A DNA stretch of 64,000 nt from NCBI GenBank assembly GCA_043800535.1, contig JAZDMV010000023.1, positions 111,186 to 175,185 of the forward strand, in the 5' to 3' direction. Made by a program: the position numbers and the translations under genes. The DNA is from a bacterium (lineage in GTDB: Bacteria > Patescibacteriota > Minisyncoccia > Portnoybacterales > GWB1-42-6). This document shows, one piece after another, positions 10,696-29,226 of this stretch (position 1 is the stretch's first letter; the number at the start of each line of letters is the position of its first letter). Under the pieces are notes generated by a model. That model ran no database searches. It was not told where the DNA came from and saw only the letters and a list, made by a program, of their open reading frames with translations.

Positions 10696-12099
10696 TTAAT
10701 TATTGCTTAATTTAATAAATCTTAACAAGGCCAGAAGCGATCTAATATCCCGCTTTAGCTCGTCCCAGTTCCTTAATCTCATCAAACGTCGCAGAACAAG
10801 CTTTGGCCGGAAAAAGAATTTTTTATTAGCTAGACGGTAGTAATATTGCAGCTTCTCCCGGCTAAGCCCGGGCAGTTCCAGGACGGCATTTGATAAATTA
10901 TAATCATCCCAGTTAAAACTTTTGATGCATCCTCTTTCTTTTGCCCATTCAAAAAGATAGGTTCCGGGAAATGGAATGGCAACATTAAATTGGGCAATAT
11001 CAAGGTCCAGTTTCAAGGCAAAATCAATTGTTCTTTTTACGGTCTCTTCCGTTTCTCCCTGGTTGCCGAACATAAAAGACGCTCTTGTTTCTATGCCTAT
11101 TTTCCTTGCTGTCTTGATTATTTTTTCCACCCTTTCAAGAGAGATCTTTTTGTTTATAGCTTTTAGGATCTCCTCATCGCCCGACTCGACCCCGAATAAT
11201 ATCTGATAGCAGCCGGCTTTTTTCATTAATTTCAGAAGATCTTCGTCAACATAATCAACCCTGGTGATACAGGACCAGCTGATGTCTATTTTCTCATCAA
11301 TGAGCAGATTGCAAAACTCAACTACAACATCCTTAAAAAGAGTAAAGGTATCGTCCACTATTGATATTCCTTTTATGCCGTAATCCCGCTGCAGCGTTTT
11401 GATCTCATCCACAATATTCCTGGCCGATCTTTTCCTGAGCACGCCCCGGAAACAGCGATAACAAAAGGTACATCTTCCCGGGCAGCCCCTGGTGGCAAAA
11501 ATTGTCATGGCTGGCAATTTTTTGTAATTGCCGGGCGCCGGATAATATTTTTTTATCGGCAGCAAATGGTAGGCAGGATGAGGAATATCGTCCAGGTTTT
11601 TGATCAGAGGCCTCAATTCGTTTCTAATGGTGCGGCCGTTTTCCTTGTAGCATATGCCAAGGATCTCCTTTGGAGATTTTCCTGCCACTATTTCTTTTAT
11701 CGTTTCCTCTCCCTCGTCTATCACCACAAAGTCCACATACGAATGAGATATCACTTCTTCGGGCATAATCGAAGGATGCACGCCTCCCATGACAATTTTG
11801 GCGCTGGGAAATTCTTTTTTTGCAATTTTTGCAATTCTCAACGCATTATTGATCAGGGGGGTGGTGGCGGTCAGGCCAATAAAATCCAAACTATCATATC
11901 TTTTTAAAACCTGGTTCATATCATTGACCGTGTAATGTTCGGCCGAACAGTCAAGATAAAAAACTTTGTGATCCTCTTTTTCCAAGACAGCCGCTATTAA
12001 AGCCAGTCCCAAACTTGGCCAGCAGCCGGCAATTTGCTTCCATAAATTCCTGTCCTCCCCTATGACCCAGGGCGGATTTATCAATAATATCTTTTTCAT
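10696..12099 (-). CDS. B12-binding domain radical SAM protein (paralog of 18962-20383)
   Basis: KKILLINPPWVIGEDRNLWKQIAGCWPSLGLALIAAVLE. CxxxCxxC motif GCPGRCTFC. The likely start is MKKILL at 12099 (the six-frame ORF extends to 12144). Confidence 0.85.
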   Translation of the reverse strand: MKKILLINPPWVIGEDRNLWKQIAGCWPSLGLALIAAVLEKEDHKVFYLDCSAEHYTVNDMNQVLKRYDSLDFIGLTATTPLINNALRIAKIAKKEFPSAKIVMGGVHPSIMPEEVISHSYVDFVVIDEGEETIKEIVAGKSPKEILGICYKENGRTIRNELRPLIKNLDDIPHPAYHLLPIKKYYPAPGNYKKLPAMTIFATRGCPGRCTFCYRCFRGVLRKRSARNIVDEIKTLQRDYGIKGISIVDDTFTLFKDVVVEFCNLLIDEKIDISWSCITRVDYVDEDLLKLMKKAGCYQILFGVESGDEEILKAINKKISLERVEKIIKTARKIGIETRASFMFGNQGETEETVKRTIDFALKLDLDIAQFNVAIPFPGTYLFEWAKERGCIKSFNWDDYNLSNAVLELPGLSREKLQYYYRLANKKFFFRPKLVLRRLMRLRNWDELKRDIRSLLALLRFIKLSNN

Positions 12100-12119
12100 T
12101 TTAACCAAGTTTCTGAATG

Positions 12120-12776
12120 TTATATCCACTTGAACATCTTCCAAAAAATTTTCAACCCATCCTTGAAAGCGTTTACCCGCGAAACATCGGCATACCGCGC
12201 TTTTTCAAAACAAGGCACTTCACCGAACTTATAGCCGGCTTTTTTGGCTTTGGCTAAAAATTCAATGCATAAAGAAAAATCATCGGCCTTCAGATCCAAA
12301 GAGTTAAAAACTTCTTTTTTTGCCGCTACAAAAAAATACAAACTGTCAGAAACCTTTGTGCCGTAAAAAAGATTTGTCAAAAAAGTGAATATTTTATTGC
12401 CTATGCTCCGGATGAAAGTGTCGTCTTCGGTACCTGCGCCTGGCATATAACGGGAGCCCATGGCAATATCGTATCCCTCCGCCAACTTGGCCACCAACCT
12501 TGGGATGTCCTTGGGATTTTGAGAATAATCAGCATCCAGAGTCACAACAATATCGCCGGACGCATTTTTGAAACCATGCCGATAGCCGTCGCCAAATCCT
12601 TTTCCCGGCTGGACCAAAACCCGGCACCCAAGAGATTCTGCGATTTGGGCTGTTCTGTCTTTGGAATGACCGTCAACCACCAATATCTCATCCACCGAAT
12701 CTCTGGGAATATTTTTAATGGTCTGGGCAATACATTTTTCTTCGTTCAAGGCCGCAATTAGGGCTGTGATTTTCAT
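12120..12776 (-). CDS. Glycosyltransferase family 2, polyprenyl-phosphate sugar synthase-like (DPM1/ArnC/GtrB-like)
   Basis: ITALIAALNEEKCIAQTI...VVDGHSKDRT...TLDADYSQNP carries the DxD-type GT-A signature. The short 218-aa form is typical of lipid-phosphate GT2 enzymes. Confidence 0.8.
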   Translation of the reverse strand: MKITALIAALNEEKCIAQTIKNIPRDSVDEILVVDGHSKDRTAQIAESLGCRVLVQPGKGFGDGYRHGFKNASGDIVVTLDADYSQNPKDIPRLVAKLAEGYDIAMGSRYMPGAGTEDDTFIRSIGNKIFTFLTNLFYGTKVSDSLYFFVAAKKEVFNSLDLKADDFSLCIEFLAKAKKAGYKFGEVPCFEKARYADVSRVNAFKDGLKIFWKMFKWI

Positions 12777-13852
12777 AGATAGAAGTTCTTTATTTTATTA
12801 CAAATTAATTTTACCTGATTTTCGGTCAAAGAAACAGAGGACGGCAGCCAAAGGCCGGTTTTCGCGATTTTTTCGGCTATCGGGTAGCGGCCTGGCTTTT
12901 TATAGGCGGGCTGGCTGTGAAGCGCCGGATATATCGGCCGGGAACCTATCTGCTCGTCTTTTAAAAAAGCGATTAATTTTTTCCGGTCAGGCACGAAAAT
13001 ATCCGCAAACCAGGGCGTTGTCTGTTTTAGATCCGTCCCAATGAATTTTATCTGCTTTACGCCGGCCAAAAGCTTTCTATATAAAGCAAATATTTTTTTC
13101 TTTTTGGTCATACGCGCTTTTATTTTTTTCATCTGCGCCACGCCAAAAACCGCCTGCAGATCGGTAAATTTAAAATTCCAGCCGACCTCTTCATAAAAAT
13201 CTGCCCCGCCTTGCAGGCGGCCAAAATCTTTAATCCGTTTAATTTTTTCAAAGATTTTTACGTCGTTTGTCACAAGCGCCCCGCCCTGGCCGGTTGTTAT
13301 GATCTTTGGCGCGCTGAAAGAAAAACTACCGATAACTCCAAAAGTGCCCAGGTGCCGTCCGCGATAAAAAGACCCCAACGACTGAGCCGCGTCCTCAATG
13401 AGATAAACGTGCTTTTTTGAACAAAGCTTTTTTAATTTCGCCAGTTCTCCCGCCCGTCCGTTCAAAGAAACATGCATCACCGCTTTTGTCTTTTTGTTTA
13501 TGGCCTCCGTAACCTTTTCAACGTCAAGGCACAAACTTTTTTCTTCAATATCAACAAAAACCGGTTTGGCGCCCGCCAGAATGACCGCATTAGGAGTGGC
13601 AGCCATTGTGATGTCTGGCACAATGACCTCGTCGCCTGAACCAACGCCCAAAGCACGAAGCGCGACAAATAAGCTGACTGTACCATTGGAAACAACCGAA
13701 CAATACCTAGCGCCACAAAAACGCGCAATCATTTCTTCAAATTCGCGCGTTTTTTTAAATTCCATCAGCCAGCCGCCGGAATTTAAATAATCGCTGACTG
13801 CTTTTATTTCTTCCCGGCCGTAGGATGGCTCAGTCTGGTGAATAAACTTCAT
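12773..13852 (-). CDS. DegT/DnrJ/EryC1/StrS family sugar aminotransferase
   Basis: FSFSAPKIITTGQGGALV is the PLP-Lys motif. 359 aa. ATGA overlap with the GT2 gene. Confidence 0.85.
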   Translation of the reverse strand: MKFIHQTEPSYGREEIKAVSDYLNSGGWLMEFKKTREFEEMIARFCGARYCSVVSNGTVSLFVALRALGVGSGDEVIVPDITMAATPNAVILAGAKPVFVDIEEKSLCLDVEKVTEAINKKTKAVMHVSLNGRAGELAKLKKLCSKKHVYLIEDAAQSLGSFYRGRHLGTFGVIGSFSFSAPKIITTGQGGALVTNDVKIFEKIKRIKDFGRLQGGADFYEEVGWNFKFTDLQAVFGVAQMKKIKARMTKKKKIFALYRKLLAGVKQIKFIGTDLKQTTPWFADIFVPDRKKLIAFLKDEQIGSRPIYPALHSQPAYKKPGRYPIAEKIAKTGLWLPSSVSLTENQVKLICNKIKNFYL

Positions 13853-13895
13853 ATGAAATCTTATAGAAAACTAAGCAGCTATGCCGCTCTTATAA

Positions 13896-14282
13896 TTAAA
13901 TCAAAATTTTATCTTCTATAAAAGGGCCATTTTTCGTCTCAACCATTTCTGCGTCTTCCAGGACATGGATCCCATAACCGCCATGCATCAATACAAAAAA
14001 ATCTCCACCAGATAAATAAATGAATTTTAAAAACTTTTTGTCGGGACCGTAGAGATCAAGTTTTATCCTTCCCTTTTTAACCATCAAAAATTCTTGGAGA
14101 CAATCAGTGGTTCTTTTTCTTGGCTTATGCATATGGGCTTTCAAATAAGCACCATTTTTATGCCGCAAGGTCACCACCTGCAGCGGTTCTTTTCCGTCGG
14201 TCAATGGAATAGACCCTTTTGGCAACGCCTTAACCCGAAAACCAATAAGTTTTTTTTTGTAAAATATTTTTTCCATTTTTTC
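13896..14282 (-). CDS. Cupin-fold WxcM/FdtA-like protein (putative NDP-4-keto-6-deoxyhexose 3,4-ketoisomerase)
   Basis: The HxH...E...G...H pattern (KAHMHKP...QEFLMV...GGDFFVLMHGGYGIHVLEDAEMV) resembles FdtA. The start is taken at the internal MEKIFYKK to avoid overlap with the gmd paralog. Confidence 0.45.
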   Translation of the reverse strand, partial: EKMEKIFYKKKLIGFRVKALPKGSIPLTDGKEPLQVVTLRHKNGAYLKAHMHKPRKRTTDCLQEFLMVKKGRIKLDLYGPDKKFLKFIYLSGGDFFVLMHGGYGIHVLEDAEMVETKNGPFIEDKILI

Positions 14283-14289
14283 AATCACC

Positions 14290-15357
14290 TTACATAAACG
14301 CTTTGCGCACCTTAAAATGCTTCCCCAGTAAGGCCTCCTGCTGCGCAATCTTGAAATCTTCTCTTGCCATGAGCTTGGCTAACGCCCTAAACGTCGTTTT
14401 TGGCCGCCAGCCCAAAACTTCTCTTGCTTTTGAAGAATCCCCTTGCAAAAAATCTACTTCAGACGGCCTGAAATAAAGAGGGTCCACTTTTACGACAACT
14501 TTTCCGGTCTTTTTATCAATGCCCTGCTCATTTAACTTTTTGCCCTTCCAGACAATATCCATACCCAGATTCCTGCCGACTTCTTCAACAAATTCCCTGA
14601 CCGTATGGCTTTCCCCGGTTGCCAGCAAAAAATCATCCGGCTTTTTGTGCTGGAGGATCATCCAAATACCCTCAACATAGTCCTTGGAATAACCCCAGTC
14701 CCTTTTTGAGTCCAGATTTCCGAGCTTTAAGACGTCCTGGAGGCCCAGCTTGACCCTTGATAACCCTAATGAAATTTTACGGGTAACAAAGTTAACCCCT
14801 CTCCTTGGCGATTCGTGATTAAAAAGTATGCCGTTGGAGGCAAAAATCCCGTAGCTGTTGCGGTATACTTTTGTTATATAGAAAGCGAACACCTTTGAAC
14901 ATCCGTAAGGAGACTGTGGATTAAAGTAGGTGTCTAAATTTTGCGGCGCGGGAGCTTTTCCAAACATTTCCGAAGAGCTTGCCTGATAGTATCTGGCAGG
15001 CATTTTGAGATTGTGAATTGCCTCCAGCACCCTTAAGGCACCAAGACCCGTTATGTTGCCGGTATATTCTGGCTTTTCAAAACTTATTCCAACGTGGCTT
15101 TGCGAAGCAAGATTATATATCTCGTCTGGCTCAATTTGAGATAAAACTCTATGTAAGCTGGCACTGTCGCTTAAATCTCCATAAACAGTCATAAAGTTCG
15201 GGAATTCGGGATTGTCGTAAAGATGATCAATTCTAAAAGTATTGGGCACACTTGAGCGCCTTTGAATTCCATATACTTTATAGCCCTTTTCCAGCAATAA
15301 TTCGGCCAAATACGAACCATCCTGGCCTGTTATGCCGGTAATTAATGCCTTTTTCAT
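14290..15357 (-). CDS. gmd: GDP-mannose 4,6-dehydratase (second paralog)
   Basis: ALITGITGQDGSYLAELLLEKGYKVYGIQRRSS. YGCSKVF is the YxxxK motif. 355 aa. Confidence 0.9.
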   Translation of the reverse strand: MKKALITGITGQDGSYLAELLLEKGYKVYGIQRRSSVPNTFRIDHLYDNPEFPNFMTVYGDLSDSASLHRVLSQIEPDEIYNLASQSHVGISFEKPEYTGNITGLGALRVLEAIHNLKMPARYYQASSSEMFGKAPAPQNLDTYFNPQSPYGCSKVFAFYITKVYRNSYGIFASNGILFNHESPRRGVNFVTRKISLGLSRVKLGLQDVLKLGNLDSKRDWGYSKDYVEGIWMILQHKKPDDFLLATGESHTVREFVEEVGRNLGMDIVWKGKKLNEQGIDKKTGKVVVKVDPLYFRPSEVDFLQGDSSKAREVLGWRPKTTFRALAKLMAREDFKIAQQEALLGKHFKVRKAFM

Positions 15358-15429
15358 ATGGGTTTATATTACACGAAAATATGTTTTTTGACAATATCGT
15401 TCGGCAATGTCTTTAATGCGTGAATACAC

Positions 15430-15467
15430 GAAGAAAACCCCTGACTTGGATTGTTCCAAGTCAGGGG
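15430..15467 (-). terminator. Rho-independent terminator after the Dabb gene
   Basis: 12-bp GC-rich stem cccctgacttgg/ccaagtcagggg. It is followed on the minus strand by ttttctt. Confidence 0.55.
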
Positions 15468-15490
15468 CTGTTGATCTTTCTAAATTATGT

Positions 15491-15814
15491 CTATGGCGGC
15501 ATCGGCGCGTATATATCGCCGGTCCACCAGTCGGCAATCTGCTTCATTAATTCGCCAATCTCTTTGTGCTTCGGGTGGTCTTTGAACTTCCGCAGGGCGG
15601 CATAGTTTTTAAAAGCAGAGACTTCTACTAAATGCACGCTTTTGCGCAAATCCATATTCTCTCTTACTGTCCAAAAAAGAATCCCCGCCTCTTTGCCTCC
15701 GCAATCCTCACCCATGGATTGTAGCCTCAAAAACGCTTCCTGTCTCTGCCCCTCTGTCGATCCGGGCTTAAAAGAAAAAAGGATAACATGAAAAACATTT
15801 TCATCCTTCTGCAT
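15491..15814 (-). CDS. Dabb (stress-responsive dimeric alpha/beta-barrel) family protein
   Basis: 107 aa. The pattern HVILFSFKPG...LVEVSAFKNYAALRKF is characteristic of the Dabb domain. Confidence 0.55.
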   Translation of the reverse strand: MQKDENVFHVILFSFKPGSTEGQRQEAFLRLQSMGEDCGGKEAGILFWTVRENMDLRKSVHLVEVSAFKNYAALRKFKDHPKHKEIGELMKQIADWWTGDIYAPMPP

Positions 15815-15947: not shown

Positions 15948-17615
15948 TTATTCGCAAACAGTTATTTCTTTTAACTCGTTGTTTGTATTTTCTGTGATGA
16001 TTTCTGTTAATTCTTTATCATAGCCAGCAAAACTGGTAATGCCGTATTTTTTAAAAACCTGCTTAAGCTCGTTTTTAGCGGCCAGCTTTTTGATCGTAGA
16101 GGGCGCAAAATAAATAAAATTTCTGTCCAGATAATAAGCCAGCGCTTCAGGCATTTCAGACGCCCAGCCCACGACCGTCACGCCGTTTTTACCAAATAAA
16201 TTTTTATTTTCTTCATTCCTGGCGAAAGCCAGGATCTGACGTGTCTGGCCAGGATTGGCATATGCCTCGTGAAGATTCCACCAGCTGATCTGAAAAAAGA
16301 AAAATACCAAAACTGCTGTTACGCCCCCCATTATCATTTTCGCGGATTTTTGTTCTAGATCAAAATGTTCCGCCGCCAGTTTGGCGATACGGCTGATGCC
16401 CAACGCCAAAAAAATCGAAGCCGGCAGATTCAAAACTGCCAAATGTGCAAAATTGGAAGTTTTCAAAAACGTCAAAATTGCCAGCCATGAAACGATGAAT
16501 GACAAGCCAAAAACAAACCAATTGTGCTTTTTCTGCCGCCAGAGTTCCTGCCCGCCCAAGAAAATCAAAAGCCAAGAAAAAGCCCCGCCAAAAACAATTA
16601 GAGAAAGAAACAGCCCCTTAAAATACATCCAGGCCGAAAAAGCACGTGTTACAATTTCGCTTTTGAAAAAACCTATGGATACGCCGTAATCCTTAAAGAA
16701 CATTCCGAAATCGCCCCAGAAACTAAACTGTTTTATCAACGAAATTCCCTGATTTTGGACATAAACTTCCCGCAAAAATTCCTGCCTTTTATTATAAAAT
16801 GTGTAAGGGTCAGGAAAAACATAACCATAGATATAAGATGGCTCGTTGGGGCTTTGATTGACTCCCAACATTACTCCAAAATAGGAATTTCCGCCGATCA
16901 AGAAGAAAGGGAACGCCACCAACAGGAACGATAAACCAAACCAGAAACATCTTTGCAGCGCAATTTTCAGGTTTTTCCTCTGCGCCAAAAATTCGAGAAC
17001 TAAAAATGCCGGGAACGCTACTATAAAATTATTCTTTGCCGCGGCTGATAGCCCCAAAAATAATCCGGCCAAGAGCAGATAGATTATTTTTCTGTCTTTC
17101 GGCCAAAAATAAATAAAAGACGCGATCGTCAAAAAAAGATATGCCCACTCCTGCGTGCCGGCCGCGTTAGAAAATGGCAAAGCGTATGGAGCAAGGATCG
17201 CCAAAAATGCCGCCGTGAGCGCTATTTCACGCCTAAAATGTCTGCTCGCGATAAAATATAAAATTACAGCGCAAAGTGAATAAATAAAAAAAGAAACAAA
17301 AATCGGCAGATCGGGATGGAATCCAGTAGTTCTGAATAGTAGACCGTAAAGTAAAAAGGTCAGTTTGTTTCCCAACTCTGCCCCCACTCCCTGCGTTTTT
17401 ACCGCTTCCAGCGATAAAACAGCACCGTTAGCGTTTTCATATGCAAAACTGTTGTTCTCGGACCAATTGCGCGAAACTAAAAGATTAAAATAAGAAGTGC
17501 TGGTAAGGCCAATAGCCCGATACACAAAATAATGCGCAAAAAAACTGAACAAAAAAATAACGGCCACTAAAATAATAACTCTGGCGATTTTATTTTCTTT
17601 AAGAAATTTGTTCAT
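15948..17615 (-). CDS. Polytopic membrane protein, GT-C fold glycosyltransferase-like (ArnT/PMT-like)
   Basis: 555 aa with more than 10 TM helices. An AAKNNF region follows TM. Its topology resembles ArnT/PMT-family transferases. Confidence 0.45.
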   Translation of the reverse strand: MNKFLKENKIARVIILVAVIFLFSFFAHYFVYRAIGLTSTSYFNLLVSRNWSENNSFAYENANGAVLSLEAVKTQGVGAELGNKLTFLLYGLLFRTTGFHPDLPIFVSFFIYSLCAVILYFIASRHFRREIALTAAFLAILAPYALPFSNAAGTQEWAYLFLTIASFIYFWPKDRKIIYLLLAGLFLGLSAAAKNNFIVAFPAFLVLEFLAQRKNLKIALQRCFWFGLSFLLVAFPFFLIGGNSYFGVMLGVNQSPNEPSYIYGYVFPDPYTFYNKRQEFLREVYVQNQGISLIKQFSFWGDFGMFFKDYGVSIGFFKSEIVTRAFSAWMYFKGLFLSLIVFGGAFSWLLIFLGGQELWRQKKHNWFVFGLSFIVSWLAILTFLKTSNFAHLAVLNLPASIFLALGISRIAKLAAEHFDLEQKSAKMIMGGVTAVLVFFFFQISWWNLHEAYANPGQTRQILAFARNEENKNLFGKNGVTVVGWASEMPEALAYYLDRNFIYFAPSTIKKLAAKNELKQVFKKYGITSFAGYDKELTEIITENTNNELKEITVCE

Positions 17616-17619
17616 ACGA

Positions 17620-18978
17620 TTAAAAAAGCCCGATCTTCTCCTTGAATCTTTCCAGATTCAGCAATAGATCGACCAGTCCGTTTAAAAAAATTAAACCTAT
17701 CGCGGCCCACAAAATTTTATTATACGCCCAGGTTTTTATTCTGCCCAGCGCCACCAAAAAATAAGCGGCAAAGATCGCCAAAGCCGGATAAATCTGGAAA
17801 CGGTATCTGGTTTCCACCACCGTCACAAAAACAAGCAAAGAAACACTCAAGGCAAAAACTGCTAGATACGCCAACGCTTCTCGCTGCGTTTCTTTTTTAA
17901 AAAATACTGACTTTATTATTCCGCCAAGTCCCAGAACAAATAAAAAACAAGAAGCCAAAGCAGAAGACAAAACAAATAACATCTGTCCAAGGCCGGTCTG
18001 GTAGAACCAGAATCCCATTGGTCTGGCGACGCTGAAATACTTGCTTATCCTAAAAATCGTCAGTTTTAAAAATTCAGCCGGGTAATCGCGCAAAAATTCC
18101 TTAAACCGCGCTAGCGACTCGCCATTGATGTTTTTCACTTCCTCTGTGGCGGCAAACTGACGCTGTTCGTCCGTCGGCTCTTGTTCGCCGTTGCCGTTGT
18201 GATAATTGCCTATCCAGAAATTAAAATTGCCCGCGGCGCCAAACGGCATAAATTCTTGATACACCGCATAATTTCTGACTGTCCAGGGCGTAAAAACCGC
18301 TGCTAAAATTATCAAAAACAAAATTCCCTGGCGCCACAGTTTTCCTCGATAAAAATAAAAAATAATAACCGGAGTGAATAAAAGAACTGTCGGCCGCGCC
18401 AGAACCGCCAGCCCGGAAGCCAAAGCTAAACAAGCAACCAGCCAATAACTTTTCTGCCGGAAGTGCCAAAAGAAAAAATAAAGCATCAGGCACAATAAAA
18501 AAAGATACAATGTTTCGCTCATCAGCATCGCCGAAATTTCTATCAGGTCCGGATAAAATCCGAAAATTGCCGATGCCCACAATCCTATTGTTTTTTTCCT
18601 TTCGGAATTGAAAAATATTAAAAGTACCGTAAGATAGACCAGCCACGCCGATAAAGCGTGAACTACCGCCTGCAAAATCCAGACCGGCCGCAAGTCATGC
18701 CCGAAAATTTTATATGCACCCGCCAAAAAATACTGATACAGCGGCCCGACTCTGGCAATCGCGTAGTCATGCGCCAAATCTTTGTCCAAATCTTCCCGAT
18801 ATCCCTGGCCGCTGACGATATTGAAAGCGATCTTATCATAAGCCCGCGCGTCCACCAGAGGCTTGATCTTAAAATGGAAAGAATAAAATAAGCTGGCGCA
18901 AAAAGACAGCAACAAAATTATGAGCAAAATCTTGTTGTTTTTTAAAAAATCCTTAAGCTCGCTATTTAAGATTTTCAT
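17620..18978 (-). CDS. Polytopic membrane protein, GT-C fold glycosyltransferase-like (ArnT/PMT-like)
   Basis: 452 aa with multiple TM helices. The first-loop acidic motif is DARAYDKIAF. Its start overlaps the radical SAM gene stop by 17 nt. Confidence 0.45.
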   Translation of the reverse strand: MKILNSELKDFLKNNKILLIILLLSFCASLFYSFHFKIKPLVDARAYDKIAFNIVSGQGYREDLDKDLAHDYAIARVGPLYQYFLAGAYKIFGHDLRPVWILQAVVHALSAWLVYLTVLLIFFNSERKKTIGLWASAIFGFYPDLIEISAMLMSETLYLFLLCLMLYFFFWHFRQKSYWLVACLALASGLAVLARPTVLLFTPVIIFYFYRGKLWRQGILFLIILAAVFTPWTVRNYAVYQEFMPFGAAGNFNFWIGNYHNGNGEQEPTDEQRQFAATEEVKNINGESLARFKEFLRDYPAEFLKLTIFRISKYFSVARPMGFWFYQTGLGQMLFVLSSALASCFLFVLGLGGIIKSVFFKKETQREALAYLAVFALSVSLLVFVTVVETRYRFQIYPALAIFAAYFLVALGRIKTWAYNKILWAAIGLIFLNGLVDLLLNLERFKEKIGLF

Positions 18979-20383
18979 AGATAAATTTAAGCAGGACCAG
19001 TCCGCCTTTGAATTCCTGCTTGAACTGCTCCCAGCTTCTTATATGTGCCAGACGCCGCAAAATTATTTTTGGCCGGAAATAAAATTTTCGGTGCGCCAGC
19101 TCGTAATAATGCTGGAGCGTTTTTGCGTTTAGGCCCGGCACCTCCCAGACCACGTTTGACATGCTATAATCGTCCCAGTCAAAGCTTTTTACATATCCTT
19201 TCTTCCTGGCCCAATCAAAAAGTTCGGTTCCTGGATACGCTGTGGCGATGTTAAACTGCACCTCGTCAGGATCAAGCTTAATCGCAAAATCAATCGTCTT
19301 TTTTATCGTTTCTTCCGTCTCCCCCTGATTGCCGAACATGAACGAAGCGCGCGTTTCAATCCCCACGCGCCTGGCCGCCCTTACAACCTGCCTGACCTGG
19401 TCCAAAGAGATCCGCTTATTGATATTTTCCAAAATTTGCTCGTCAGCCGATTCCACTCCAAATAAAATCAGATGGCAGCCGGCCTGTTTCATCAGCGACA
19501 AAAGCTCCTCGTCAACCCGATCAACCCTGGTAAAACACGACCAGGTTATGTCAATTCCCTCTTCGATTATTGTACCACAGAATTCCCTGACCACATCTTT
19601 GAACAAAGTAAACGTGTCATCGTAAAAAGCCACTTCCTTTATGCCATAATTTTTCTGCAGGATTTTAATTTCGTTTAAAATATCGGCCGCCGATCGCTTT
19701 CTGACAATTCCTCGAAACGCGCGGTGGCAAAAGGTACATCTTCCCGGACACCCCCGCGTGGCAAACAATATCATGGCCGGCAGGCGTTTGTAACTGCCAA
19801 TTGCCGGATAATATTTTCCCATCGGCAGAAGATGATAAGATGGCGGCGGAATGGTATCCAGATCACTTATCAACGGCCGTGATTCGTTTTTAATAACCTG
19901 GCCGCTATCTTTAAAAACCAATCCTAAAATTTCTTTGGGATCCCGGCCAACAACTAATTCTTTCATCGTTTCTTCTCCCTCGTCAACAACCACAAAATCA
20001 ACATTCTCGTCCGCGATGACTTCTTCTGGCATAACCGAAGGATGAACACCGCCCAGCACTATTTTCGCTTCCGGAAAAACTCTTCTGGCTTGCCGCGCGA
20101 TAGCCAAAGCGTTATTGATCATCGGCGTTGTGGCGGTCAGGCCGACAAAATCGGGCTTTTCGCCCAGGCTTTTAAGAAATTCACCGGTTTCGCCAACAGT
20201 GTATCGCTCGGCCGTGCAGTCAAGGTATCGAACAATGTGCCCTCCCTGTTCCAAGACCGCCGCAATATAAGCCAAACCTAAACTCGGCCAGCAACTGGCT
20301 ACTTGCTCCCACAAATTCTTATTTTCGCCTATAACCCAGGGTGGATTAATGAGTAAAACTTTTTTTGCCGAGCCAATATTCAT
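18962..20383 (-). CDS. B12-binding domain radical SAM protein (paralog of 10696-12099)
   Basis: KKVLLINPPWVIGENKNLWEQVASCWPSLGLAYIAAVLE. Cluster motif GCPGRCTFC. High similarity to 10696-12099 along the whole length. Confidence 0.85.
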   Translation of the reverse strand: MNIGSAKKVLLINPPWVIGENKNLWEQVASCWPSLGLAYIAAVLEQGGHIVRYLDCTAERYTVGETGEFLKSLGEKPDFVGLTATTPMINNALAIARQARRVFPEAKIVLGGVHPSVMPEEVIADENVDFVVVDEGEETMKELVVGRDPKEILGLVFKDSGQVIKNESRPLISDLDTIPPPSYHLLPMGKYYPAIGSYKRLPAMILFATRGCPGRCTFCHRAFRGIVRKRSAADILNEIKILQKNYGIKEVAFYDDTFTLFKDVVREFCGTIIEEGIDITWSCFTRVDRVDEELLSLMKQAGCHLILFGVESADEQILENINKRISLDQVRQVVRAARRVGIETRASFMFGNQGETEETIKKTIDFAIKLDPDEVQFNIATAYPGTELFDWARKKGYVKSFDWDDYSMSNVVWEVPGLNAKTLQHYYELAHRKFYFRPKIILRRLAHIRSWEQFKQEFKGGLVLLKFIYENLK

Positions 20384-21072
20384 TTCTTAAACCTATATTT
20401 TAACAGAGTGACTACTGCCTTAAACGCGTCGCGCCAGCCGATTTTTTTCCCTTCGTTTTTATGACGTGGTGAATAACTTATCGGCACCTCATAAATAGGG
20501 ATTTTTCTTTTAGCGACCTTGGCCGTCACCTCGGGACAGAATTCAAAACGCTGGCATTCCAGGTTTATGCTTTTGAGTAGCTCTGTTTTAAACATCTTAT
20601 AGCAGGTCGGCTCGTCCGTGATTTTTATTCCGTACAATAAATTCGTCACCCAGGTCAAAAATATCCCGCCCAAAGCAAAAATATGACCAGAATGACGCCG
20701 CTTAAAGTAGCTGTGATGAAGGCGCCGCGAGCCGTAAACCACTTTCACCTGCACTTCTTTGGCCTTTCCAACCAATAATTTCAAATCATTCGGGTCATAT
20801 TCCAGGTCCGCATCCTGTATCACTACCCAGTCGCCGCTCGCGTTTGCAAGCCCGGTCCGAATGGCCTTCCCCTTACCATGGTTTTTTTCATGACGCAGAA
20901 CGATATATTTATCTCTATATTTTTCTAGAATTTCTCTGGTGCCGTCTGTCGAGCAATCGTCCACAATAATAATTTCTTTTTCCACTCCCAAATCAGCATT
21001 TTGGACTTTGGCCAGCAGCTCTTCAATGGTCTGCGCTTCATTGAACACTGGAATGATAATAGACAGCTTCAT
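20380..21072 (-). CDS. Glycosyltransferase family 2, polyprenyl-phosphate sugar synthase-like (DPM1/ArnC-like)
   Basis: MKLSIIIPVFNEAQTIEELL...IIVDDCSTDGT...VIQDADLEYDP. Paralog of 27070-27765. Confidence 0.8.
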   Translation of the reverse strand: MKLSIIIPVFNEAQTIEELLAKVQNADLGVEKEIIIVDDCSTDGTREILEKYRDKYIVLRHEKNHGKGKAIRTGLANASGDWVVIQDADLEYDPNDLKLLVGKAKEVQVKVVYGSRRLHHSYFKRRHSGHIFALGGIFLTWVTNLLYGIKITDEPTCYKMFKTELLKSINLECQRFEFCPEVTAKVAKRKIPIYEVPISYSPRHKNEGKKIGWRDAFKAVVTLLKYRFKK

Positions 21073-23969: not shown

Positions 23970-23972
23970 AAA

Positions 23973-25403
23973 TTATTTTTTTGATTTAACTAAACTGTAT
24001 GTTCGCCGCAAGAACTTACCCAACCAGTTTTTTTCCTCAATCGCCAGCCCGGCCAAAAATTCAATAAAATAAATATCCAGCGGCAGGGCAAAAAATCTGT
24101 GTCTGATCCTAAATTCAAACCATCTGTTTGCCGGCCCCAGTTTGAATTTCAGCAATTTAAAACACTCCCTTATCCGCCAGACGTATCCGCCATCAACCCA
24201 GGGCGAAGCAAAATCCTTTCTGAACCTATCAATCCTGCCCCAATCCTCGGTCCGCTCCGGCGGTCTGAACCCTTTTTCTTTCGCAAGCTCGTACATGGTC
24301 GAGCCGGGATACGGCATATAGGCGCCGAGAGTAAAAGCGGCTCTGGGATGAATTTTGTAGATCGTATAAAGCAGGTCTATGGTTGACTCAAATTCTTCTT
24401 TCGTTTCCGTCGGCAAACCCACAATTGCCGAATAACTGGCTGGCACGTCATATTTGGCCAGCGACCTGACCGCTGAAATAATTCTTTCTACGGTTATTCT
24501 TTTATTGATCATCTCAAGAATCCTGTCGCTGCCTGACTCAACGCCTATCAAAAGGTCAAAAACGCGTAACTCTTTAAGCCGTCTCGCTAATTCGTCATCG
24601 ATCATATCAATCCGCACTTCAAGATGCGCCGGCAAATTTATTTTTTCCAGGATCTCAAGCGCCCTTGCCTTATCAACGAAAAAATTGTCGTCGTAAAACT
24701 TAATGGCATCAATATGGTATTTTTGCTTCAAGAATTCTATATCCTTGGCCACCATATCAGACGACCAGGCGCGCCAACGATTTTGGTTAAAGATCTTATT
24801 GTAACAAAACCCGCAGCTAAAAGGGCAACCGCGGCTTGCTTTGTAAGCAACAACTCTTTTGTATCTGTCCAGCCTATAAACATATTTCTCCATATCCAGC
24901 AGCGAAAAATCCAATGGCCAATCGTCCAAATTTTTAATCAAGGGCCTTGAATCACCAAGATGCGCCTGACCATCTTTTTTGTAGCCGAGGCCAAGAACAT
25001 TATCAAATGCCTCGCCCTGGCTTAATTTTTGTGAAAATTCCACAATCGTCTCTTCGCCTTCGCCTACAATTACAAAATCTATATAAGATTCCGCGAGGCA
25101 CTGTTCAGGCAAAAGAGACGGGTGAATGCCGCCCCAAACGACTTTAACCGCCAAACTCTCTTTTATTTTTTTTGACAGCTCGGCGCTGTGCTTTGTCTGG
25201 ATACCTGTCATAACAGAGATTCCCACAAAAAGAGGGTTTTTGGCCGCAATGTAAGCAGCGGTTTTTTCTATCTCTTTTTCCGTGATATTTAAAAGCTCCA
25301 CAAAAAAACCATGCTTTTTTAAAGCGCTGCCAATGGATAATATCCCAAGCGGCAGAATCTTTTCTGAATGGTCTTCTGAATAATTTATCTGGACTAAAAT
25401 AAT
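23973..25403 (-). CDS. B12-binding domain radical SAM protein
   Basis: Cluster motif GCPFSCGFC. A B12-domain-like N-terminus (LGILSIGSALKKHGFFV). The start is taken at the internal MIILVQ to avoid overlap with the upstream methyltransferase (the six-frame ORF reaches 25478). Confidence 0.8.
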   Translation of the reverse strand: MILVQINYSEDHSEKILPLGILSIGSALKKHGFFVELLNITEKEIEKTAAYIAAKNPLFVGISVMTGIQTKHSAELSKKIKESLAVKVVWGGIHPSLLPEQCLAESYIDFVIVGEGEETIVEFSQKLSQGEAFDNVLGLGYKKDGQAHLGDSRPLIKNLDDWPLDFSLLDMEKYVYRLDRYKRVVAYKASRGCPFSCGFCYNKIFNQNRWRAWSSDMVAKDIEFLKQKYHIDAIKFYDDNFFVDKARALEILEKINLPAHLEVRIDMIDDELARRLKELRVFDLLIGVESGSDRILEMINKRITVERIISAVRSLAKYDVPASYSAIVGLPTETKEEFESTIDLLYTIYKIHPRAAFTLGAYMPYPGSTMYELAKEKGFRPPERTEDWGRIDRFRKDFASPWVDGGYVWRIRECFKLLKFKLGPANRWFEFRIRHRFFALPLDIYFIEFLAGLAIEEKNWLGKFLRRTYSLVKSKK

Positions 25404-25407
25404 CATC

Positions 25408-25965
25408 TTATTTAAAAGCCCGCGCAAAAAGATTATAACCGAATTCAAATTTCTCAATAATAATTTTATCTTTTTCAAAACCGGCCGCCGCCAACAAGAT
25501 AGATAATGTTTCCCTGCTAAAATAATTTACGTGGCCTCTAATCTGCTCTCTCGAAACAATTCCTAATTTGAGCGAAAGAAATTCAAGCAGGCCCCGGCCG
25601 CTCAGATCTGGAGTCGTTAAAAGCAGCAACCCGCCCGGCTTTAAAATTCTTAGACATTCTTTTAAAATCTCTTCCGGTTTTCCAAGATGCTCCAGCGCCG
25701 CTAGCATTGTGATACAATCAAAATGATCGGATTCTTCAGGAATTTTTCCAAGCAGCTCAGTTTTTTTCAGAGTGATATTGCCCGTTTTCTGCTCATTGAC
25801 TTCTTTGTCATAGCCAACGCCTTCGACTATTAAATCCTTGACCTCAAAAAGAAGCTGGCCTTGAGCGCCGCAGCAAATATCGCAAACTCTTCCGGCCTTG
25901 GGAATATACTTTTTTATCTTGGCAAATCGCAGGCAGAAAAGTATCGGTTCCAAAAATGGCGTCAT
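25408..25965 (-). CDS. Class I SAM-dependent methyltransferase
   Basis: VCDICCGAQGQLL. LLLTTPD. 185 aa. Confidence 0.65.
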   Translation of the reverse strand: MTPFLEPILFCLRFAKIKKYIPKAGRVCDICCGAQGQLLFEVKDLIVEGVGYDKEVNEQKTGNITLKKTELLGKIPEESDHFDCITMLAALEHLGKPEEILKECLRILKPGGLLLLTTPDLSGRGLLEFLSLKLGIVSREQIRGHVNYFSRETLSILLAAAGFEKDKIIIEKFEFGYNLFARAFK

Positions 25966-25969
25966 TGCT

Positions 25970-27073
25970 TTAATAAGTTATCTTAAATAAGCCGTTTATC
26001 AGCAAGCGCAGCCCATCGTCGTATATTAACCAGAAATAATTGCCCGCCAGAATTATTGTAAGCAAGAGAGCATAAGCGTAAGTTTTGTGCACCCAGTTGC
26101 CCAAGTTAACCATCCCGAAGCTGGCAAAAATACAGAGCAAAAATGCAATTACGTAAAAGAGACGGGAAGAGGCGCCTATCCAGAGAAGCGGCAAAAGAGA
26201 CGGCGCAAAAAGCGCTAATAAAATTTTCTTATTCTCGTTTGCCATCTTTTTTATTTTCAAAACGCCGGCAAAAACTAAAAGCCAACCCAGCAAGAAAGTT
26301 GCGCCTAAACTTTTGGCCACTACCTGAACAAGCTGCTCTTTATACAGTTCGGCCCGACCCAACGAAAACCAGTCAAAATATGAAAAATGGAATTTAAAAT
26401 AAACAAATGCCTGCCAAGCCAGAAACACAGGCGCAAAAAACAAGCCATAAACCGCCAGATACTTTATTTTCTGCAAAAAATCTCCTTTATAAATAAAAAA
26501 CAGGCAAATGAAAAAAAACAGGATCCCGACCGCGGCATATTCTTTTGTCAAGAACCCGGCTAGGCAAATCAAGCCGTTTAAAATTATCCATTTGTATCGC
26601 GGCTCTTTCAAAAAAACCAGCGTCAAATAGATCGAAAGCGCGCAGAAAAACCAGCTTGCCAGATCCGTCATATAAGTTATGCCGTATTCCAGCATCGGAT
26701 AGCTGGCTAAAAAAAGAACCGAAGCAATAAACGCCTGCTTATCGTCGTCAAACATCAACTTCACTATTTTAAAAATGACGAAAGCTATCAAAAAATAAAA
26801 AATACTGTTCAAAAAAAGGAAAGACGCCTTAAGGCCGAACACATACGAGCTTATTGCGATAAAAAAAGGCATTAATGGTTTAAGCAGGCGCTGGGCCACG
26901 GGCGCTGCCTCCCCCCTAAAATATTGGGCTGTCATGGCATAGCCTTCTGAATCAGAGCTGAAAGGAGCGGTAAATTTCAACAAAAAAACATTTATAATAA
27001 AAATATTAAGCAGGGCAAAGATCGCCAGGCCGACAAAATAACTCCGCGGAATTTTTGAATCCAAAACGTTCAT
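25970..27073 (-). CDS. Polytopic integral membrane protein of unknown function (possible GT-C-like transferase or polymerase)
   Basis: 367 aa, about 10 hydrophobic helices and no soluble domain recognised. It sits between a GT2 gene and a methyltransferase gene. Confidence 0.4.
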   Translation of the reverse strand: MNVLDSKIPRSYFVGLAIFALLNIFIINVFLLKFTAPFSSDSEGYAMTAQYFRGEAAPVAQRLLKPLMPFFIAISSYVFGLKASFLFLNSIFYFLIAFVIFKIVKLMFDDDKQAFIASVLFLASYPMLEYGITYMTDLASWFFCALSIYLTLVFLKEPRYKWIILNGLICLAGFLTKEYAAVGILFFFICLFFIYKGDFLQKIKYLAVYGLFFAPVFLAWQAFVYFKFHFSYFDWFSLGRAELYKEQLVQVVAKSLGATFLLGWLLVFAGVLKIKKMANENKKILLALFAPSLLPLLWIGASSRLFYVIAFLLCIFASFGMVNLGNWVHKTYAYALLLTIILAGNYFWLIYDDGLRLLINGLFKITY

Positions 27074-27765
27074 CGCAGTAAATTAAATCTTATGATATGC
27101 CAAAAAGTGGCCAGGCCGTCTTTCCAATTGATTTTTTTGCCCTCCTGGTATGTCCTGCCTGAATACGAAATGCCAATTTCGTAAATTCTGAATTTGCCCT
27201 TGGCAAAACGTGCCGTCAACTCCGGCTCAATGCCAAAGCGCCTTGACTTAAGTTTTGGCAGAATTTTATCCAGAACTTCCTTGGTAAAACATTTATAGCA
27301 GGTTTCCATGTCCGTTAACGTCAAATTCGTCAGCATATTTGAAAAGAATGTCAGCAACTTATTGCCCAAATAATGCCAAAAGAACAGAACCCGATGAGGA
27401 TTGGCCGTCAGCATGCGCGAACCATAAACAACATCTGCTTTGCCTTTAAGAATCGGTTCGAGCATTGTCGGATATTCGGCCGGGTCATATTCAAGGTCCG
27501 CGTCTTGGATGATAATAATGTCTCCTGAGGCCTGCAAAAAGCCGCTGCGCAGTGCCGCTCCCTTGCCGTAATTTTTGTCGTGAAAAATAATTTTATAATT
27601 ACCCTGCAACGCCTTAAGAATTTCCCGCGTGCCGTCATCTGAAAAATCATCCACCAAAATTATTTCTTTTGCCAGGTTTTCGGCCGGGCTTTTTTCTACG
27701 CGCCTGACAATTTCGCGGATCGTATTTTTTTCGTTATAAACAGGGATAACAATAGAAAGTTTCAT
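27070..27765 (-). CDS. Glycosyltransferase family 2, polyprenyl-phosphate sugar synthase-like (DPM1/ArnC-like)
   Basis: MKLSIVIPVYNEKNTIREIV...ILVDDFSDDGT...IIQDADLEYDP. Confidence 0.8.
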   Translation of the reverse strand: MKLSIVIPVYNEKNTIREIVRRVEKSPAENLAKEIILVDDFSDDGTREILKALQGNYKIIFHDKNYGKGAALRSGFLQASGDIIIIQDADLEYDPAEYPTMLEPILKGKADVVYGSRMLTANPHRVLFFWHYLGNKLLTFFSNMLTNLTLTDMETCYKCFTKEVLDKILPKLKSRRFGIEPELTARFAKGKFRIYEIGISYSGRTYQEGKKINWKDGLATFWHIIRFNLLR

Positions 27766-27774
27766 AATTTATAA

Positions 27775-29226
27775 TTAAGCAGTCCTCTTTTTAAAAAAGA
27801 AGGAGAGCAGCGCCAATCCTCCGCTTAGCATAATTCTTATATCGCCCAGCGACCTTATGCCAAAAATCTTTTTTAGGATATATTTTGGCCGGAAATAAAA
27901 ACTACGATACATTATCTGATACAGCCCGGATATCTCATTCTCGGTCAGATTTTCCAGACGCATGACGGGCTTGGCCAAAGTATAATCATCCCAGTCATAA
28001 GTCAGAAGTAATTTCCGTTCGTGGGCCCATTTAAACATTTCGGTGCCGGGAAAAGGGGTAGTTATATTTACAATCAACAGATCAGGATTTATTCTGTTCA
28101 CGAATTTGATATTCTTTTTTATAACCTCAAGATCGTCACCCGGATTTCCCACCATAAAAGCGAGGCGGCATTCAATCCCCGCTTTTTTTGTCCAGGAAAC
28201 AGCATTTATTACCTGCTCAAGATTTATTTTCTTATTGATATTTTTCAAAACTGTTTCATCGATATTTTCCACGCCATACATTATCTGATGACAACCGGCT
28301 TGTTTCATTTTTGCCAGCATTTCTTCGTCAACGAAATCCACCCGCGCAAAACACGTCCAGGTTAGGTCTATTTTATTTTTGAGCAACAAATCGCAAAGTT
28401 TAATTACGTTATCTTTGAAGACAGTAAAGGTGTCGTCATAAAACAAAATTTCCTTAATGCCATAGTTGCCAATCAAAAATTCTATTTCCTTAAAAATCGC
28501 CTCAGCGGACTTAAAAACCATCTGTTCGCCGAGGGTCTTTGAGCAAAAAGTACACCTGCCCGGACAGCCACGCGAAGTCATCATGCTCATTGCCGGCAGG
28601 CGTTTATATGAGCCCTTGGCAGGCCGGTATTTTTCAACAGGCAAAAGGTCATAAGCCGGCATGGGCAACGAATCCAAATCCGTAATGCGTTCTCTTGGTT
28701 TGTTTTTTATTATTTTTACTCCGCCAGGCAAATTCTTTTTAAAAACGATCCCATCTATTTCTTCTAAATTTTTCCCGGCTACAAGCTCCCCTGCCGTTAT
28801 CTCACCTTCGCCTACAACCACGACGTCAATAAATTCTTTGGCAATTACTTCGCCAACCACAAAGGTTGGATGCACTCCGCCAAAAACAATCAACGCTTCA
28901 GGGTATAATCTCTTGCATATTTGCGAGATCTCGTACGCTTTTTTTATTGTGCCCGTCACGGCCGTTATCCCGATTACTTTTATTTTATCAAATTTTTCGC
29001 TGAAGTTCTGCCGGAAATACTGTTCAAAAGCGTCAACCGACGGACAGAATATGTCGCAATCAAGGATCCGGACAGAGTGGCTTTTACTGCGCACATAGCC
29101 CGCTATGGAAGCCAGGCCGAGCGGCGGAAAATTTGAATTTATTCGCTTCCAGATGTTTTCGTCGTCCTTATAAAACATGGGTGGCGAGATCAGGAGGCAA
29201 TCCAACTGTCTGTTTTTTTCTTCCAT
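27775..29226 (-). CDS. B12-binding domain radical SAM protein
   Basis: GCPGRCTFC. The N-terminal B12-binding region LGLASIAGYVRSKSHSVRILDC. Confidence 0.85.
   Translation of the reverse strand: MEEKNRQLDCLLISPPMFYKDDENIWKRINSNFPPLGLASIAGYVRSKSHSVRILDCDIFCPSVDAFEQYFRQNFSEKFDKIKVIGITAVTGTIKKAYEISQICKRLYPEALIVFGGVHPTFVVGEVIAKEFIDVVVVGEGEITAGELVAGKNLEEIDGIVFKKNLPGGVKIIKNKPRERITDLDSLPMPAYDLLPVEKYRPAKGSYKRLPAMSMMTSRGCPGRCTFCSKTLGEQMVFKSAEAIFKEIEFLIGNYGIKEILFYDDTFTVFKDNVIKLCDLLLKNKIDLTWTCFARVDFVDEEMLAKMKQAGCHQIMYGVENIDETVLKNINKKINLEQVINAVSWTKKAGIECRLAFMVGNPGDDLEVIKKNIKFVNRINPDLLIVNITTPFPGTEMFKWAHERKLLLTYDWDDYTLAKPVMRLENLTENEISGLYQIMYRSFYFRPKYILKKIFGIRSLGDIRIMLSGGLALLSFFFKKRTA

Follow-up and report, generated by a model that had tools for sequence, protein, structure and literature searches.

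A 64,000-nt stretch of a Patescibacteriota genome (Portnoybacterales, GWB1-42-6; assembly GCA_043800535.1, contig JAZDMV010000023.1, positions 111,186 to 175,185), hereafter the window, encodes three sets of neighboring genes for a family 2 glycosyltransferase (GT2), a radical S-adenosylmethionine (SAM) enzyme with a B12-binding domain (rSAM) and large polytopic membrane proteins of the GT-C glycosyltransferase type (Table 1). Conservation across phyla, translational coupling and a stand-alone trio in another genome support the GT2-rSAM pair together with a GT-C as a real functional cassette. We lean towards three parallel cassettes, in which the GT2 would load a lipid carrier, the rSAM would alter the lipid-linked sugar, and the product would be flipped and transferred by the GT-C outside the cell. 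The cassette is real, conserved and uncharacterised, and is not an established new mechanism. A literature search for a GT2-rSAM-GT-C system found no description of one.

The three pairs lie in one operon on the minus strand, which spans positions 447-35315 of the window and contains 34 tightly packed genes. The majority of junctions are overlaps or gaps below 20 nt. The operon carries three GT2s, four PMT_2 GT-Cs, one ArnE/F-like protein with four transmembrane (TM) segments and six rSAMs with B12-binding domains. The sugar-nucleotide set comprises two Gmd, two DegT aminotransferases, a split UGDH and a UXS-like short-chain dehydrogenase/reductase (SDR), and the operon also encodes five GT4 enzymes and five class-I methyltransferases. 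The GT2, rSAM and GT-C genes are all intact, and no pseudogenes were found among them. An earlier analysis of the letters without database searches (the sequence-only reading) had described the three adjacent pairs, and both their coordinates and domains were confirmed, as were the rSAM N-termini that it quoted. The 10-TM protein that it noted is GT-C-4, itself a PMT_2 GT-C. Shuffling the order of the 34 operon genes placed all three GT2s beside any rSAM with a probability of ~0.03, and beside the three rSAMs of a single clade (rSAM-B, rSAM-C and rSAM-E) with a probability of ~0.003. Conservation across genomes is much stronger evidence for the pairing than such shuffling within the window.

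The modules are tightly coupled at the nucleotide level. In module 2, the stop of GT2b and the start of rSAM-C overlap as ATGA, and rSAM-C overlaps GT-C-3 by 17 nt. A spacer of 20 nt separates GT2a from rSAM-B in module 1, where the ATG start of rSAM-B is backed by alignment to rSAM-C and the open reading frame (ORF) is formally extendable to a TTG at 12144. Module 3 has the reversed order, with rSAM-E preceding GT2c at a gap of 9 nt and GT2c overlapping GT-C-4 by 4 nt. All four GT-Cs score above the PF13231 cut-off and have 9-10 predicted TM segments, and mutual alignment is barely possible. The first loop contains a WPDE motif in GT-C-1, VDARAYD in GT-C-3 and SDSEGYA in GT-C-4, with no clear acidic motif in GT-C-2.

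The association of GT2 and rSAM genes recurs in many other genomes. Scans of genomes and of metagenomes, with an alignment of the clade as seed, retrieved 160 loci, and contig look-ups added four (L081-L083 and L167). Neighbors were labelled using called ORFs, hidden Markov models (HMMs) built from the window proteins and a hydropathy-based TM count. The clade set comprises 71 non-redundant loci with an rSAM of at least 580 bits against the clade HMM, and 62 of these were scorable with both neighbors visible. A DPMS-like GT2 is the immediate neighbor of the rSAM in 43 of the 62 scorable loci (on the same strand in 42). The adjacent GT2 lies upstream of the rSAM in 29 cases and downstream in 14. 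The exact trio, in which the rSAM is directly flanked by a GT2 and, on its opposite side, by a large polytopic protein, is found in 23 of the 62 loci. When the view is widened to three genes from the rSAM, the counts among the 71 clade loci are 56 for a GT2, 48 for a large polytopic protein, 21 for a class-I methyltransferase and 10 for a UXS-like gene. As controls, neighboring rSAMs scoring 400-580 had an adjacent GT2 in none of seven cases, and distant class-B rSAM loci had an adjacent GT2 of at least 60 bits in only 4 of 54.

Homologues of rSAM-C number more than 2,000 at E <= 1e-20, and the closest are annotated as Patescibacteria, Portnoybacteria and Staskawiczbacteria. The titles of clade loci name Patescibacteria lineages, Elusimicrobia, Thermoguttaceae, Phycisphaerae, Desulfobaccales, Desulfomonile, Hydrogenedentes, Omnitrophota, Chloroflexota and Acidobacteriota, and one clade locus lies on an archaeal contig. 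Polytopic neighbors in loci of Planctomycetota and Elusimicrobia are likewise PMT_2 proteins. Locus L083 consists of a stand-alone GT2-rSAM-PMT_2 trio with unrelated genes on both sides and no other sugar-nucleotide genes in the cassette. The order in L081 (Portnoybacteria) is GT2-rSAM-GT2-PMT_2-PMT_2, and the closest relative (L167, 82% identical) has two modules in tandem. The archaeal contig (L082/L101; JGI Ga0315280_10000013, 362 kb) carries the markers RNA polymerase subunit N (RpoN), RNase P Rpr2, L13 and S9, and its cassette encodes two small membrane proteins (one with an EamA match), a GT2, an rSAM and a 618-aa polytopic protein. The archaeal rSAM shares 65% identity with the Patescibacteria enzyme, suggesting a transfer between domains. 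Small multi-TM genes adjoin the cassette in some loci elsewhere, including L082 and L167.

The pairing also extends to particular types of GT2 and rSAM. C-type rSAMs mostly occur with GT2b-type genes (35 loci), and E-type rSAMs occur with GT2c-type genes in all three loci having a nearby GT2. Orthologues of GT2b (320-380 bits) are located directly upstream of rSAM-C orthologues in most Patescibacteria loci, and GT-C-3 orthologues are the commonest partner of C-type rSAMs elsewhere. Gene fusions were found between a GT2 and a C-terminal class-I methyltransferase (L008 11454-12923, Desulfobaccales; L015 2901-4436, Hydrogenedentes), and between a more distant B12-rSAM (38% identical) and an LPG_synthase_TM membrane domain (L046 9998-12391, Patescibacteria). 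No GT2-rSAM fusion was present in the loci examined, and the long tblastn matches in L131, L132 and L137 each span a pair of neighboring rSAM genes.

Related gene layouts are carried on plasmids of two cultured organisms. Plasmid pDCAR1 of Solidesulfovibrio carbinolicus DSM 3852 (L164) encodes a GT2-like protein (359 aa), an rSAM (35% identical and with the same C-terminal tail) and a 501-aa protein with ~7 TM segments. Lawsonia intracellularis plasmid 1 (L166) encodes a DPMS-like GT2, two DUF2304 small membrane proteins, a SIS domain protein, two rSAMs and five methyltransferases.

The sequence-only reading considered the three pairs as a duplicated module. Comparisons among the paralogs point instead to three old modules that were assembled differently. 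The rSAMs linked to GT2s form one clade with identities of 64% (B-C), 44% (B-E) and 46% (C-E), and rSAM-A, rSAM-D and rSAM-F are 24-35% identical to these and to one another. The GT2 partners of the closely related rSAM-B and rSAM-C, GT2a and GT2b, share only 29% identity. GT2b and GT2c are 44.5% identical, and GT2a is 28-29% identical to either. In a neighbor-joining tree of 102 rSAM sequences, rSAM-B and rSAM-C both fall into the Patescibacteria crown with L003 and L084 as respective sisters. rSAM-E groups in a separate deep subclade with loci of Hydrogenedentes and Parcubacteria, and has orthologues in L015 and L018 (~756 bits), each beside a GT2c-type gene. The rSAMs B, C and E are each nearer to sequences of other genomes than to one another. 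Simple tandem duplication is rejected on account of the discordant GT2 and rSAM identities, the reversed order of module 3 and the tree. On these comparisons, the modules did not arise as recent tandem copies; they are either ancient paralogs or units that were acquired separately. Module 1 is by the same measure a C-type rSAM joined to a different GT2 lineage, with GT2a not co-duplicated with its rSAM. The sequence-only reading had named an adjacency unseen elsewhere and decaying duplicates as grounds for abandoning the idea; what was observed instead is adjacency in multiple phyla, intact genes and old paralogs. Because old paralogs occur here with different GT2 and GT-C partners, the three modules probably deliver different sugars. 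That three differently modified sugars decorate one product, as the sequence-only reading implied, is plausible.

The six operon rSAMs all pass the Pfam cut-offs for PF02310 (B12-binding) and PF04055 (Radical_SAM) with an intact CxxxCxxC motif. The motif is invariant in the 95 clade sequences (95/95), and a GGxHP motif is conserved. Outside of CxxxCxxC, the cysteines C269, C283 and C303 (rSAM-C numbering) are conserved in 92-94 of the 95 sequences. None of these is found in rSAM-D, only C269 in rSAM-A, only C303 in rSAM-F and only C283 in HpnJ. The three cysteines could be H-atom donors, auxiliary-cluster ligands or structural residues, and their predicted secondary-structure positions would not obviously bring them together for an auxiliary cluster. 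The last 60 residues of the rSAMs form a strongly basic (net charge +6 to +11), amphipathic tail that includes an FYFRP motif common to HpnJ. The tail looks membrane-associated. The AlphaFold2 model of rSAM-C (pLDDT 91) combines a Rossmann domain with a partial TIM barrel and three C-terminal helices. A fold search of the PDB with this model retrieved AprD4 as the nearest structure (TM-score 0.77-0.81), followed by TsrM, MgmA, CysS, OxsB and TokK. The fold was dropped as a guide to chemistry since the structural neighbors of the model include a dehydratase, methylases and a ring-contracting enzyme.

Profile searches place the rSAMs in no curated family. The NCBIfam scan returned no model at cut-off for the rSAMs, GT2s or GT-Cs. 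The best NCBIfam match of rSAM-B, rSAM-C and rSAM-E, over the full length, is HpnJ (TIGR03471), with scores of 269, 275 and 215 bits that do not reach the cut-off of 577.6. A PGAP-annotated HpnJ is 32% identical to rSAM-C end to end. Scores against the AprD4 family NF033070 are 107-123 bits (below the cut-off of 500), and HMMs of HpnR and ladderane lipids match moderately (103-139 bits). The sequence match of rSAM-C to AprD4 in the PDB (99 bits, 22-23% identity) is limited to residues 152-414. An HpnJ function for the rSAMs was dropped given scores below half the cut-off, an identity like that of the paralogs A, D and F, and a GT2 unrelated to HpnI. No hopanoid-pathway Pfam family was detected among the 54 window proteins scanned, with HpnA and HpnB matching only far below threshold in NCBIfam. 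Most class-B rSAMs are methylases, and Fom3, MoeK5 and HpnJ co-cluster in a sequence similarity network (PMC9204698). The use of B12 by the clade rSAMs is predicted from their domains. The type of reaction, though, cannot be read from sequence.

The GT2s are ~220-230 aa long, have no TM helix and share a DAD motif. Their best HMM matches are all polyprenyl-phosphate sugar synthases (AglJ, Dol-P-hexose transferase, PpgS, ArnC and PgfS), and the AglJ HMM is covered over positions 2-216. GT2a scores 126 bits for AglJ and 86 bits for Dol-P-hexose transferase. The best PDB match of GT2b is the P. furiosus DPMS 5mlz (residues 1-212 of 230, E 7e-20), followed by ArnC, and GT2b is the presumed polyprenyl-phosphate sugar synthase of module 2. 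From this homology and the constant GT-C neighbor, we infer that the GT2s use a polyprenyl phosphate acceptor. GT-C enzymes take polyprenyl-phosphate-linked donors (PMC11127046), hence the pairing of GT2 and GT-C would fit the Gtr/Arn/Pgf paradigm. The candidate flippase of module 1 scores 29.9 bits for TMEM234 (cut-off 30.1), 36.7 for ArnE and 35.9 for ArnF, both of the latter also below cut-off. The sequence-only reading assigned an SMR flippase, GT-C proteins or a 10-TM protein to each pair. For the flippase, this applies to module 1 with an ArnE/F-like candidate, and no counterpart was recognised in modules 2 and 3.

We suggest the following sequence of steps for the cassettes. At the cytoplasmic face, a soluble GT2 would charge polyprenyl phosphate with a monosaccharide taken from a nucleotide sugar. 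The class-B rSAM might next alter the lipid-linked sugar, with C-methylation, epimerisation, deoxygenation or rearrangement as candidate reactions. Class-I methyltransferases may often contribute extra methyl groups. The product would then be flipped, in module 1 possibly by the ArnE/F-like protein, and the PMT_2 GT-C would move the sugar to an extracellular glycan or protein, judging from the known donor type of the family. The order of making, modifying, flipping and transferring a lipid-linked sugar had been anticipated in the sequence-only reading. The logic of a lipid-linked donor passed on to a GT-C is well supported by analogy to known systems, and the position and chemistry of the rSAM step are more conjectural. 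The rSAM must be active in the cytoplasm because SAM and a reductant are needed, so the substrate is either a nucleotide sugar or a polyprenyl-phosphate sugar prior to flipping. We favor the lipid-linked sugar because of the dominant GT2-rSAM-GT-C order and the membrane-like tail in common with the lipid-acting HpnJ. The GT2-methyltransferase fusions, which would tie tailoring to the GT2 product, and the LPG_synthase_TM fusion point in the same direction. There are also known precedents for the tailoring of polyprenyl-phosphate sugars ahead of export, namely by ArnD, DprE1/E2 and ORF13 (PMC11127046).

Several observations weigh against a GT2-loaded, rSAM-tailored and GT-C-transferred lipid-linked sugar. 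Approximately 30% of the clade loci have no directly adjoining GT2. The best GT2 scores remain far from the equivalog cut-offs (AglJ 126/325, ArnC 75/529, PpgS 54/370, Dol-P-hexose transferase 86/375), and the C-terminal TM helices of GtrB, ArnC and PfDPMS are missing. The only flippase candidate is that of module 1, below the cut-offs of ArnE/F and TMEM234. The rSAM clade is large, without a curated family or a characterised member. rSAM-C is 29-33% identical to the window paralogs A, D and F, thus HpnJ is no closer than these and the top HpnJ match does not fix the chemistry. AprD4 lacks cobalamin despite having the same domain (PMC12931638), which bears on the predicted use of B12. Finally, the gene data also fit a nucleotide sugar as the substrate of the rSAM.

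The last point leads to the alternative that the rSAM tailors the nucleotide sugar before the GT2 acts, in the manner of DesII or AprD4, followed by flipping and GT-C transfer. The cassette would still be a unit in this case. AprD4, the solved relative nearest in both sequence and fold, has a soluble aminosugar as its substrate, and many modifications of deoxysugars are generally known to take place at the level of the nucleoside diphosphate sugar. The rSAM gene also precedes the GT2 in 14 of the 43 adjacent cases, including module 3 of the window, but the commonest order is GT2, rSAM and GT-C (29 of 43). The basic amphipathic tail, common to the lipid-acting HpnJ, and the restriction of the AprD4 alignment to residues 152-414 speak against such a pathway as well, and we regard it as unlikely. 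Minimal cassettes without other sugar-nucleotide genes fit either substrate. A meaningless adjacency, caused by crowding in a large glycan operon or by recent tandem duplication with decaying copies, is barely conceivable. The operon is indeed dense in glycosyltransferases, methyltransferases and rSAMs, and the chance within the window is only ~0.03. Yet the adjacency recurs in at least six phyla as well as on an archaeal contig, and L083 has the trio on its own. The copies are all intact with each paralog nearer to relatives in other genomes, and related loci are 45-82% identical, as expected for diverged orthologues rather than one recently transferred island.

Two further alternatives concern the chemistry. 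The rSAM could perform a ring contraction of a lipid-linked hexose or hexosamine similar to HpnJ or calditol synthase, leading to a carbocyclic cyclitol that serves as a stable glycolipid-like head group rather than a donor. Ring contractions have been proposed for such enzymes (PMC13459092, PMC9204698), and the full-length HpnJ match with its 32% end-to-end alignment includes the tail. The 4-nt overlap of hpnJ and hpnI in Paraburkholderia, followed by a membrane protein, also corresponds to the layout of window module 3. We nevertheless consider a ring contraction quite improbable. Scores stay below half the HpnJ cut-off, with HpnJ no closer than other paralogs, HpnI is no homologue of the GT2 partner (E 0.009), and HpnJ lacks the GGxHP motif of the clade and keeps only C283 of the three conserved cysteines. 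The window contains no HpnK-like deacetylase or hopanoid gene. Furthermore, a phosphate-linked carbocycle could not donate a glycosyl group, yet the GT-C is the most constant third partner. The other alternative is that the target of the rSAM is the lipid carrier or a different membrane lipid, e.g., through isoprenoid methylation or cyclisation as in HpnP/HpnR, Gmm and Grs, and not the sugar. Isoprenoid lipids are substrates of many class-B rSAMs (PMC13459092), and both the moderate HpnR and ladderane-lipid matches and the membrane-associated-looking tail would be consistent with such a role. However, the tight coupling across phyla is to a sugar-loading GT2 and a GT-C and not to isoprenoid synthesis genes, and the association of paralogous rSAMs with different GT2 types fits sugar-specific over carrier-specific roles. 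A lipid-modifying rSAM seems very improbable to us.

The nearest functional precedent for the cassettes is the group of three-component systems (GtrA/GtrB/Gtr*, ArnC/ArnE-F/ArnT, PgfS/PgfE/PgfM1-2 and PpgS/Rv3779), which combine a GT2 polyprenyl-phosphate sugar synthase, a small flippase and a GT-C. Polyprenyl-phosphate-pentofuranose systems with DprE1/E2 or ORF13 epimerases follow the same plan. The Arn, mycobacterial decaprenylphosphoryl-arabinose (DPA) and Citrobacter systems tailor the sugar on its lipid prior to export (PMC11127046), and module 1 of the window, with Gmd, aminotransferase, GT2, ArnE/F-like protein and GT-C, is close to the Arn logic. None of the three-component systems contains an rSAM, though, and the window differs further by GT2s without TM anchors and by a flippase that is unrecognised in two modules. 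The best reading of the window cassette by analogy is a Gtr/Arn/Pgf-type logic with an inserted rSAM tailoring step. The closest precedent in architecture is HpnJ-HpnI(-HpnK), in which a B12-domain rSAM is translationally coupled to a glycosyltransferase of the GT2 fold and presumably acts on a sugar that a membrane lipid already carries. On Paraburkholderia graminis pPHS1_P, hpnJ has a 4-nt overlap with hpnI, and the next gene encodes a membrane protein with an LPG_synthase domain. In contrast to the window, the acceptor of that system is bacteriohopanetetrol instead of polyprenyl phosphate, no GT-C transfer step exists, and HpnI and GT2b are related no further than by fold. The window rSAMs also sit in a hopanoid-free context. 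AprD4, a 1,2-diol dehydratase of apramycin biosynthesis, resembles the rSAMs as the closest solved structure with a B12-like N-terminal domain and an aminosugar substrate. It differs by its soluble substrate, the lack of GT2 and GT-C partners and the lack of cobalamin (PMC12931638). MoeK5 (moenomycin biosynthesis), GenK and GenD1 are class-B rSAMs that C-methylate sugars, but belong to secondary-metabolite pathways without GT-C transfer, and the comparison with the window proteins is by description only.

More tentatively, and with somewhat less than even confidence, the cassettes may represent an unrecognised class of surface glycosylation in Patescibacteria, DPANN-like archaea, Planctomycetota, Elusimicrobia and Desulfobacterota, in which an rSAM acts directly on a polyprenyl-phosphate-linked monosaccharide and a GT-C installs the product. 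Such a system would yield a C-methylated, deoxygenated, epimerised or rearranged sugar made by no nucleotide-sugar pathway. Genome-reduced bacteria of the candidate phyla radiation (CPR) would have radiated the system into several parallel modules, and the construction of their cell surface would strongly depend on scavenged cobamide. Six B12-domain enzymes in ~35 kb of a small genome raise the question whether these symbionts depend on cobamide. An rSAM that tailors a sugar on its carrier lipid would bring a new reaction type to three-component envelope glycosylation. The cassette would also point to undescribed sugars on the surfaces of uncultivated CPR bacteria and DPANN-like archaea, groups in which hardly anything of the envelope has been characterised. 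As a compact set of three genes that could be expressed heterologously, it also provides a tractable entry to function in the largely unexplored space of class-B rSAMs. Given hpnIJ and the known tailoring of lipid-linked sugars, the lead will not be startling to specialists.

Table 1. Features of the glycan operon and of the adjoining part of the window (positions within the window; scores in bits).
Feature	Position	Strand	Description
GT2a (module 1)	12120-12776	-	218 aa; AglJ/Dol-P-hexose-transferase-like GT2; PF00535 97
rSAM-B (module 1)	10696-12099	-	paralog of rSAM-C; B12-binding and Radical_SAM domains
Small membrane protein (module 1)	10316-10687	-	candidate flippase; 4 TM; ArnE/ArnF/EamA-like
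Two class-I SAM methyltransferases (module 1)	9562-10299, 8892-9554	-	Pfam Methyltransf_11/25; between flippase candidate and GT-C-1
GT-C-1 (module 1)	7499-8899	-	466 aa, ~10 TM; PMT_2, PF13231 39.5
GDP-mannose 4,6-dehydratase (Gmd)	14290-15357	-	gmd equivalog 489 (cut-off 415)
WbuC-like cupin	13896-14276	-	27, weak and below cut-off; between Gmd and DegT
DegT aminotransferase	12773-13852	-	335
GT2b (module 2)	20380-21072	-	soluble DPMS/AglJ-like GT2, 230 aa; PF00535 135
rSAM-C (module 2)	18962-20383	-	class-B rSAM; B12-binding 96, Radical_SAM 107; motif CPGRCTFC
GT-C-3 (module 2)	17620-18978	-	452 aa, ~9 TM; PMT_2, PF13231 36.8 (cut-off 26.1)
GT-C-2 (module 2)	15948-17615	-	555 aa, ~9 TM; PMT_2, PF13231 27.4 (cut-off 26.1)
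rSAM-E (module 3)	27775-29226	-	deep-branching clade member; 44-46% identical to B and C
GT2c (module 3)	27070-27765	-	DPMS/AglJ-like GT2, 231 aa; PF00535 120; AglJ 114, ArnC 75
GT-C-4 (module 3)	25970-27073	-	367 aa, ~10 TM; PMT_2, PF13231 43 (cut-off 26.1)
rSAM-F	29229-30695	-	different class-B subfamily; without GT2 partner; 26-30% identical to B, C and E
rSAM-D	23973-25478	-	different class-B subfamily; methyltransferases on flanks; true start probably ATG at 25406
rSAM-A	1493-3058	-	different class-B subfamily; adjoins second DegT/Gmd pair
UGDH	33569-35315 (with the UXS-like SDR)	-	N-terminal and central domains only, 267 aa
Lamin-tail/fibronectin-III protein	37193-41011	-	1272 aa
Two Wzy_C/TPR paralogs	42397-44652, 44803-47046	-	~750 aa; O-antigen ligase-like membrane domain, C-terminal TPR repeats
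DUF559 endonuclease-like gene	47175-47528		adjoins 1157-aa ORF
ORF without Pfam match	47835-51308	-	1157 aa

Among the remaining operon genes, those for Gmd, the cupin and the DegT aminotransferase (12773-15357) would form the sugar-nucleotide supply of module 1. The WbuC-like cupin may be a sugar keto-isomerase or epimerase that fixes the identity of the amino sugar of GT2a. L003 has counterparts of rSAM-F and rSAM-D in a similar arrangement, and L081 has an additional B12-rSAM among GT4 genes. From the arrangements in these two loci, the operon backbone looks conserved between genomes. The UGDH gene overlaps that of the UXS-like SDR by 23 nt in a different frame. The homologue in L081 (Portnoybacteria) is a single 661-aa UGDH-epimerase fusion, and the UGDH of the window is either a natural split or a frameshift.

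Just past the glycan operon, the two Wzy_C/TPR paralogs could act as ligases or O-oligosaccharyltransferases for the operon product. The 1272-aa protein, which has lamin-tail and fibronectin-III domains, probably sits at the cell surface and might itself be glycosylated. The 1157-aa ORF beside the DUF559 endonuclease-like gene lies in the only GC-rich stretch of the window (0.52 vs ~0.43).

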